In this document: piece after piece, positions 60,002 through 61,177 of the stretch | Numbering within the stretch: the stretch's first letter is position 1 | Layout of the letters: every line of letters begins with the position of its first letter | NCBI GenBank assembly: GCA_044227045.1 | Contig: JBGAFW010000028.1 | Span: forward strand, 19,667 to 83,666 | Direction: 5' to 3' | DNA length: 64,000 nt | DNA from: Labilithrix sp. | GTDB lineage: Bacteria > Myxococcota_A > Polyangia > Polyangiales > Polyangiaceae | The notes under the pieces: generated by a model | The model's input: the letters and a program-made list of their open reading frames with translations, nothing else | Told to the model about the DNA's origin: nothing | Database searches by the model: none | Position numbers and translations under genes: made by a program

Positions 60002-61177
60002 ATGAGCAAGAACCTTCTCGAGCAGCTCAAGAGCATGACTGTCGTTGTCTCCGATACGGGAGACATCAACTCCATCGAGAAGTTCAAGCCGCGCGACGCG
60101 ACGACGAACCCGTCGCTCATCACAGCCGCGGCGTCGATGCCGGAGTACGCGAAGATCGTCGACGACACGCTCCTCTGGGCGCGCAAAGAGGCGAAGGACG
60201 GCGCGACCACGGACGCGATCGTCAAGCACGCGATCGACCGCCTGGCCGTCGAGTTCGGCCTTCGCATTCTCCAGATCGTTCCGGGTCGCGTCTCCACCGA
60301 GGTCGACGCTCGCCTCTCGTTCGACACGAAGGCCACCGTCGACAAGGCGCATCACCTCATCAAGATGTACGAGGCCGCTGGCGCCAGCCGCGATCGCATC
60401 CTCATCAAGATCGCGTCGACCTGGGAGGGCATCAAGGCCGCCGAGATCCTCGAGAAGGAGGGCATCCACTGCAACCTCACCCTCCTCTTCGGTCTCCACC
60501 AAGCGATCGCGTGCGCCGAGGCGAAGGTCACGCTCATCTCGCCCTTCGTTGGCCGCATCCTCGACTGGTACAAAAAGGCGACCGGCAAGGAGAGCTACGC
60601 GCCGAACGAAGATCCGGGCGTCGTCAGCGTCACGCGCATCTACGAGTACTACAAGAAGCACGGCTACAAGACCGAGGTCATGGGCGCGAGCTTCCGCAAC
60701 ATGGGCGAGATCACGGAGCTCGCCGGCTGCGATCTCCTCACGATCGCGCCGAGCTTGCTCGCCGAGCTCACGAAGACGGAGGGAGACCTTCCGCGGAAGC
60801 TCGATCCGAAGGCCGCCGCGTCGAAGGACATCCCGAAGATCGACATGACCGAAGAGGTCTTCCGCAAGATGCACGAGGAAGACAAGATGGCGAAGGAGAA
60901 GCTCGACGAGGGCATCCAAGGGTTCTCGAAGGCGCTCATGACGCTCGAGAAGCAGCTCGCCGACCGCATCACGACGATGAGCGGGCTCCGCGCCTCGGCC
61001 GCGACGAACTTATTCAAGGTCTACGACCTCGACGGCGACGGCTTCATCACCCGCGAGGAGTGGGGCGGCGCAGACGCCGTCTTCGACGCGCTCGACACCG
61101 ACCACGACGGACGCATCACCGCCGAAGAGATGGCCGCCGGGCTCGGCGCCGCGCTCCTGCTCCACCAATCGGCGTAG
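60002..61177 (+). CDS. tal: Transaldolase with a C-terminal ~70-aa EF-hand pair extension, 391 aa
   Basis: Colinear with TalB-type transaldolases over ~315 aa: [61 protein letters not shown] and GASFRN. Then two canonical EF-hand loops, [12 protein letters not shown] and [17 protein letters not shown] lies 12 nt upstream of the ATG. Confidence 0.9.

Follow-up and report, generated by a model that had tools for sequence, protein, structure and literature searches.

The window analysed here is a stretch of 64,000 nucleotides (nt) from Labilithrix sp., and the gene under study is a single uninterrupted open reading frame (ORF) on its + strand at positions 60002-61177, which runs from ATG to TAG and encodes a protein of 391 amino acids (aa). 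On the basis of the ORF and its match to the NCBIfam model NF008965, it was recorded as the complete coding sequence of a long-form transaldolase, in which a TalB-type enzyme is followed by an EF-hand pair. The gene encodes a TAL_FSA TIM-barrel domain at residues 15-318 (60044-60955, +), which was delimited with Pfam PF00923, TIGR00874 and the core of the predicted structure, a linker at residues 319-335 (60956-61006, +) which extends the C-terminal helix of the TAL domain, and a compact EF-hand pair at residues 336-382 (61007-61147, +). In the mechanically produced ORF list the same frame is open further upstream to a TTG at 59663. The ATG at 60002 was preferred as the start because a Shine-Dalgarno-like AAGGAG, read from the sequence at 59986-59991 (+), lies 10 nt 5' of it and because the homologues all begin at the equivalent methionine; the boundaries which the initial annotation had given to the gene are backed by these same two observations. 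The GC content of the window was 63-69%. A 581-aa antisense ORF at 59174-60919 (-) overlaps most of the transaldolase gene and other long ORFs were found in alternative frames, all of which are spurious ORFs of the kind usual for high-GC DNA and not genes.

The initial annotation had described the N-terminal part of the protein as a TalB-type transaldolase with all catalytic motifs present, and this was borne out. Pfam TAL_FSA matched residues 15-318 with an E-value of 3.7e-95 and a score of 319 bits against a cut-off of 27, while TIGR00874 (talAB) produced 505 bits against a cut-off of 396.2. The TalB motifs DTGD (residue 18), TTNPS (34), STEVDA (98), IKIASTWEG (135), CNLTL (157), SPFVGR (180) and ASFR (229) were all found, and Lys136 and the other catalytic motifs were invariant in an alignment of 60 sequences. 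The catalytic residues of Escherichia coli TalB are K132, D17, N35, E96, N154, T156, S176, R181, S226 and R228. Lys136, the second residue of the motif IKIASTWEG, is the equivalent of TalB Lys132 and its codon (60407-60409, +) was marked as that of the predicted Schiff-base lysine. The N-terminus aligned with that of the cytoplasmic TalB from residue 1-4 and no signal peptide was present.

An AlphaFold2 (AF2) model of the full-length protein was built with the 60-sequence alignment and showed a mean predicted local distance difference test score (pLDDT) of 89.1, with values above 90 in the barrel core. The predicted barrel superposed on the transaldolases 1f05 (human), 2cwn and 1onr (E. coli TalB) with template modelling (TM) scores of 0.96-0.97, normalised to the target, and root-mean-square deviations of 1.1-1.6 Å. 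The profile scores, the catalytic motifs and the predicted barrel fold all agreed with a type 1 (TalA/TalB) transaldolase. Judged from its sequence, the type 1 transaldolase is intact with every catalytic residue present, and transaldolase activity (EC 2.2.1.2) is predicted. Residues 1-318 would form a TalB-type class I aldolase barrel with the Schiff base on Lys136, and the predicted reaction is the interconversion of sedoheptulose-7-phosphate and glyceraldehyde-3-phosphate with erythrose-4-phosphate and fructose-6-phosphate, a normal step of the pentose-phosphate pathway.

Comparison with transaldolases of known structure showed where the protein departs from them. E. coli TalB and human TALDO1 (1onr, 1f05) share 57-58% identity and the same catalytic motifs with the Labilithrix protein, but their chains of 316-337 aa stop at the C-terminal helix, and the EF-hand pair that the latter carries is missing from them. 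The best PDB sequence match was 3hjz, the aldolase/transaldolase B of Prochlorococcus marinus (334 aa; E-value 4e-120, residues 3-329, 59% identity), which is also without the tail. Its source organism is cyanobacterial, as are most of the 80 best long-form loci described below. No solved structure in the PDB search contained the transaldolase domain and an EF-hand pair together.

The in-frame tail behind the TAL domain has about 70-73 aa, which fits the figure of about 75 aa in the initial annotation with a slight correction. Within this tail, four EF-hand models of Pfam matched residues ~336-381 with E-values from 5e-14 to 1.5e-7, and all of them exceeded their gathering thresholds (EF-hand_5, 51.4 against 25.9 bits; EF-hand_6, 44.6 against 25; EF-hand_1, 44.6 against 25.4; and EF-hand_7, which describes the pair, 32.1 against 30). 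A fifth model, EF-hand_8, stayed under its threshold in this protein (25.9 against 28). Measured against the canonical EF-hand pair (PROSITE PS00018; Pfam PF13499 and PF13202), loop 1 (residues 342-353, 61025-61060, +) and loop 2 (residues 365-376, 61094-61129, +) are both canonical 12-residue EF-hand loops which fit the PS00018 pattern, with ligands at positions 1, 3, 5 and 12, Gly at position 6 and a hydrophobic residue at position 8. The two textbook loops quoted earlier were recovered as they had been given, and the annotated combination of enzyme and loops lies far outside what chance would produce.

The search of curated protein families showed that this architecture has already been catalogued. 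The protein matched NCBIfam NF008965 (PRK12309, "transaldolase", an equivalog model of 392 positions) with 686.3 bits against a cut-off of 550 and an E-value of 1.2e-206, and residues 1-388 aligned to model positions 1-390. The 74-residue tail by itself matched positions 319-390 of the model with an E-value of 8.1e-25, from which it follows that the EF-hand tail is already part of the curated model by which NCBI names these proteins. A model that stopped short of the tail would have spoken against membership; the tail is covered and the membership stands. The protein agrees with NF008965 in its whole structure, while the family name is silent on the EF-hand tail and the model description gives no function for it. 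The protein is therefore an ordinary intact member of the curated long transaldolase family NF008965/PRK12309 and the architecture is not new. The transaldolase of Synechocystis PCC 6803 likewise has 391 aa and carries EF-hand annotations in databases, and a survey of bacterial EF-hand proteins from 2006 reportedly lists proteins of this kind. A full-text literature search found no paper discussing the combination of transaldolase and EF-hand, and the papers it returned were unrelated and of a proteomics type. The architecture is thus catalogued in databases and functionally unstudied within the literature searched.

The distribution of the family was established in two ways. A word-indexed search of 5.8 billion proteins produced 8000 matches, of which 120 were listed. 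All 120 listed homologues (73-100% identity, 376-421 aa) carried both TAL_FSA and EF-hand Pfam domains, and the few among them with names were called transaldolase of Myxococcales or Polyangiaceae. An identical protein (100%; P0001), encoded on an NCBI contig of 116 kb, was present in an NCBI-sourced collection. In addition, one genome per GTDB species was scanned with a query alignment restricted to the 60-residue tail, followed by confirmation with tblastn, and at least 495 species-representative genomes were found to have a confirmed EF-hand tail. The initial annotation had held that a calcium-binding module on a pentose-phosphate enzyme was not a described architecture; with these genomes and a curated model that includes the tail, this part of its claim did not survive.

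The loci of the best 80 of these at least 495 tail matches were analysed further. A strict two-loop pattern was passed by 72 of them, which are single ORFs collinear with the Labilithrix protein over residues ~1-388 at 67-78% identity. Another seven missed the pattern solely by one substitution in loop 2 and were still ORFs of ~400 residues with the lysine motif of the TAL domain. The single-ORF layout was accordingly found in 79 of the 80 loci, and the remaining one was interrupted by the end of a 2.4-kb contig. Going by record titles, about 61 of the best loci belong to Cyanobacteria and about 15 to Myxococcota (Polyangiaceae, Kofleriaceae and Haliangiales), and the rest comprise one metagenome-assembled genome (MAG) of Gemmatimonadaceae and a few contigs that are unclassified or probably mis-binned. 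The cyanobacterial loci include Crocosphaera, Cyanothece, Leptolyngbya, Lyngbya, Microcoleus, Thermostichus/Synechococcus and Tumidithrix, and some come from isolate genomes. The gene of the window, whose best matches are Polyangiaceae-like, is a myxobacterial instance of a well-populated family.

These loci bear directly on the question of whether the fusion is real. An error of sequencing or assembly, or a frameshift, that joined a normal transaldolase gene to a separate small EF-hand gene would produce the same reading frame, but the chance that this happened here is practically nil. No support for such an error was found, the sole short relative being P0122 (329 aa), which stops at the linker. 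Against it, one continuous ORF recurs in independent loci of two phyla, isolate genomes included, the tail is present throughout the listed homologues, a curated NCBIfam model spans it and it is under strong purifying selection. The comparison with orthologues, which had been proposed as the means of refuting the fusion, gave the opposite outcome in that the orthologues kept the tail instead of stopping at the canonical transaldolase C-terminus. An artefact or frameshift fusion was rejected on this comparison, and the earlier judgement that a frameshift was unlikely is upheld by the same single ORF in orthologues of both phyla.

The conservation of the tail was then expressed as mean column conservation over 73 members of the family, drawn from two phyla. 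The TAL domain reached a mean of 0.811, the linker (319-335) 0.60, the lowest in the protein, and the EF-hand pair (336-382) 0.856, with 0.985 for loop 1 and 0.81 for loop 2. The EF-hand tail is conserved no less than the enzyme domain and is under strong purifying selection. Two PS00018 matches were found in each of the 73 members. Wherever two loops matched the pattern, as they did in 117 of the retrieved proteins, the loop starts lay 23 residues apart. All liganding positions and the Gly6/Ile8 scaffold of the loops were kept across both phyla. Because the loops are canonical and these positions are conserved over such a range, binding of Ca2+ by the two loops can be predicted with good confidence, and the strong conservation of the tail would imply that Ca2+ binding has been selected. 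The calcium-binding module proposed in the initial annotation is thus plausible, its loops being both canonical and highly conserved, and it is only the novelty of the architecture that fell.

Just 11 residues lie between the two loops. Calmodulin-type pairs have a much longer segment here, and the short one recalls compact bacterial EF-hand proteins. Outside the transaldolases, the only sequence neighbours were weak matches to two such proteins, lanmodulin and XopAW. With these the tail shares canonical DxDxDG loops and, with lanmodulin, the short spacing between loops, but lanmodulin and XopAW are stand-alone proteins whereas the EF-hand pair here is the tail of an enzyme. The family scores were far apart, with 23-27 bits for LanM (NF053806) against a cut-off of 135 and 41 bits for XopAW against 120. 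It is very improbable that the tail is a lanmodulin-like lanthanide binder or a dockerin-like anchor instead of a Ca2+-binding EF-hand pair. The weak matches (PDB 6mi5 with an E-value of 7e-7, and the LanM model) and the similar loop spacing are what a lanthanide binder would have in its favour. The tail has two loops and not four, however, and the Pro2 and Asp9 of lanmodulin were absent in 73 of 73 members, in which position 2 was mostly L, V or I (L and T in the Labilithrix protein) and position 9 was T or S. A lanmodulin-like lanthanide binder was rejected on the low score and the missing Pro2/Asp9 signature. In the F-hand of dockerins, one short helix comes after each Ca2+ loop and the repeats are separated by a linker, which is absent in the present tail. 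No match to the Pfam dockerin model (PF00404) was obtained in the protein at an E-value of 0.1 or below and its N-terminus is that of a cytoplasmic TalB-type enzyme with no leader peptide, and a dockerin-like anchor was rejected for the lack of a profile match and of a leader peptide.

In the full-length AF2 model, the C-terminal helix of the TAL domain was a single long helix at residues 295-341 that reached loop 1. The pLDDT fell below 50 at linker residues 328-331 and was 62-81 across the EF-hand pair. The EF-hand module looks tethered in the model and not integrated into the barrel. A model of the tail alone (pLDDT 73) consisted of helix 2-24, loop and strand 31-33, helices 34-37 and 41-47, loop and strand 54-56 and helix 57-63, numbered within the tail. 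This corresponds to two successive helix-loop-helix units, each loop carrying a short strand that pairs with the other, and the exit helix of the first hand has only one turn. When the tail-only model was compared with the PDB by Foldseek, the top 50 matches were all EF-hand pair domains, among them CRACR2a 6psd, RASEF 2pmy, troponin C and NCS-1, with TM scores of 0.66-0.68 for the best of them and a best E-value of only 6.8e-3. The modelling suggests an EF-hand fold of the tail, with moderate confidence.

A rough neighbour-joining tree built on the TAL domain only, drawn without support values, grouped the EF-hand-bearing enzymes as one clade inside the TalB-type enzymes. The clade split into a branch of Myxococcota, together with Gemmatimonadaceae, and a cyanobacterial branch, with one short form nested among the cyanobacteria. 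The Gemmatimonadaceae MAG (L081) fell within the myxobacterial branch, and a locus binned as 'Rhizobium sp. Q54' (L066) grouped with the cyanobacteria and is probably mis-binned. The long forms of Myxococcota and Cyanobacteria were ~68-72% identical over their full length and appeared as sister branches on this rough tree. The branching suggests one old fusion with later loss of the tail in some lineages, and the ~70% identity between phyla suggests either a transfer of the fused gene from one phylum to another or strong constraint on it.

The short form, P0122, is a transaldolase of 329 aa with 68% identity to the Labilithrix protein that ends in the linker (…RRLAKLEGK). It still cleared the NF008965 cut-off with 600 bits and was nested in the cyanobacterial long-form clade, and either its tail was lost secondarily or the gene call is truncated. 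P0143, P0164, P0125 and P0161 are four divergent relatives of 375-391 aa and 39-49% identity, in which the EF-hand tail was nearly intact (e.g. DYDGDGFIDREEW...DRDNNGRISLEE) and the N-terminal motifs were changed, with DTGD replaced by PETAE or DAGD and DATTNPS by HVNLTAAR or EATLTAS. These proteins scored 322-463 bits on NF008965, beneath every curated transaldolase cut-off. They may be a paralogous subfamily with an altered substrate pocket or pseudo-enzymes, in which the tail has been kept better than the active site.

The genes next to the transaldolase gene were a 434-aa protein with three POTRA repeats in Pfam (57895-59199, +), a 159-aa protein known from its translation, with an apparent N-terminal signal peptide as judged by eye and no Pfam match (59200-59679, -), and a 505-aa right-handed beta-helix/NosD-like protein identified by domain search (61382-62899, +). 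These neighbours resemble envelope or secreted proteins and none of them is tied to the pentose-phosphate pathway. A motif scan for zwf, fbp, tkt and gnd found none of these genes within 2.5 kb of the transaldolase gene in the 80 loci and none in the window. The gene context is uninformative.

Downstream of the gene, the initial annotation had noted a candidate terminator, and a hairpin followed by a run of T was found there. A consensus scan located the terminator-like hairpin and its T-run at 61264-61283, and the whole element, CTGTGCA...TGCACAG with the T-rich run behind it, was recorded at 61264-61293 (+). RNA folding of positions 61175-61300 (126 nt) gave a z-score of -4.7, a much more stable fold than that of shuffled sequences, with this hairpin in the minimum free energy structure. 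The hairpin at about 61264 probably acts as a terminator. Two further elements were observed in the same 3' region. A direct repeat of CGTGACGA, present twice and followed by the inverted copy CGTCACG, lies just past the stop codon at about 61183-61205 (+), and a 33-nt hairpin, GTGAAGCTCGG...CGGGCTTCAC, lies at about 61230-61262, upstream of the terminator-like hairpin.

Taken as a whole, the results are explained best, and very probably correctly, by an ordinary NF008965 long-form transaldolase whose EF-hand pair is a predicted tethered Ca2+ switch or stabiliser. In such a protein, the C-terminal helix of the TAL domain would pass through the poorly conserved linker into the compact EF-hand pair, which would bind two Ca2+ ions and serve as a tethered switch or stabiliser that depends on Ca2+. 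Binding of Ca2+ may order the small domain or expose the conserved hydrophobic residues F338, F348, W354, F361 and L364, and the way in which the tail packs onto the enzyme dimer, or onto a partner protein, would then be altered. The behaviour of the transaldolase would in this manner be coupled to Ca2+ transients of the cytoplasm, with no direct change to the catalytic chemistry. The regulatory consequence of Ca2+ binding is speculative and is drawn by analogy. Mitochondrial glycerol-3-phosphate dehydrogenase and the Aralar/SCaMC carriers of eukaryotes have an appended EF-hand module through which Ca2+ modulates their activity, and these EF-hand-regulated metabolic proteins differ from the present protein in that their catalytic domains and lineages are unrelated to it. 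We know of no transaldolase that has been shown to have a Ca2+ effect.

Several observations weigh against this explanation. The EF-hand pair was not placed confidently relative to the barrel in the model, so that the switch step leans on what other EF-hand sensors do. Foldseek gave weak E-values (7e-3) for the tail, as is expected for a domain of 74 residues. Neither experiments nor papers dealing with Ca2+ binding by a transaldolase, or with its regulation by Ca2+, turned up in the literature searched. The gene neighbourhood is not conserved, a related genome having different neighbours, and gives no functional hint. Finally, close short relatives without the tail exist (P0122, 329 aa; PDB 3hjz, 334 aa), and the tail is therefore an accessory that the enzyme itself can do without and that takes no part in catalysis.

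The EF-hand pair could instead be a permanently occupied structural Ca2+ site, which stabilises the fold or the oligomer and has no part in signalling. This is the main alternative and is considered unlikely, if well short of implausible. It gains from the 11-residue segment between the loops, so much shorter than in calmodulin-type sensors, and from the fact that the best neighbours outside the family are the compact bacterial EF-hand proteins lanmodulin and XopAW, and the extreme conservation of the tail fits a structural site equally well as a sensor. However, the tail hangs on a poorly conserved linker of low pLDDT and is not integrated in the barrel, and the close short relatives P0122 and 3hjz work without it. 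Free Ca2+ in the resting bacterial cytoplasm is sub-micromolar and usually too low to saturate canonical EF-hands, which also argues against a site that is always occupied.

The tethered Ca2+ switch or stabiliser is the preferred reading of the tail. It is possible, and put forward only tentatively, that the tail makes the transaldolase step, which belongs to the non-oxidative pentose-phosphate pathway and is linked to the Calvin cycle, respond directly to Ca2+ transients in Cyanobacteria and Myxococcota. Such a response could run through the oligomeric state, the activity or the binding of a partner. As a discovery the protein matters little, the architecture being filed under a curated NCBI model and found in hundreds of sequenced species. 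If a direct response were true, it would provide a link from Ca2+ to central carbon metabolism in bacteria that has been catalogued and is experimentally unstudied in the literature searched. What the protein does bring to notice is a predicted Ca2+-binding module, widespread and strongly conserved, on an enzyme of central metabolism in cyanobacteria and myxobacteria, two groups with complex behaviour and known Ca2+ signalling.

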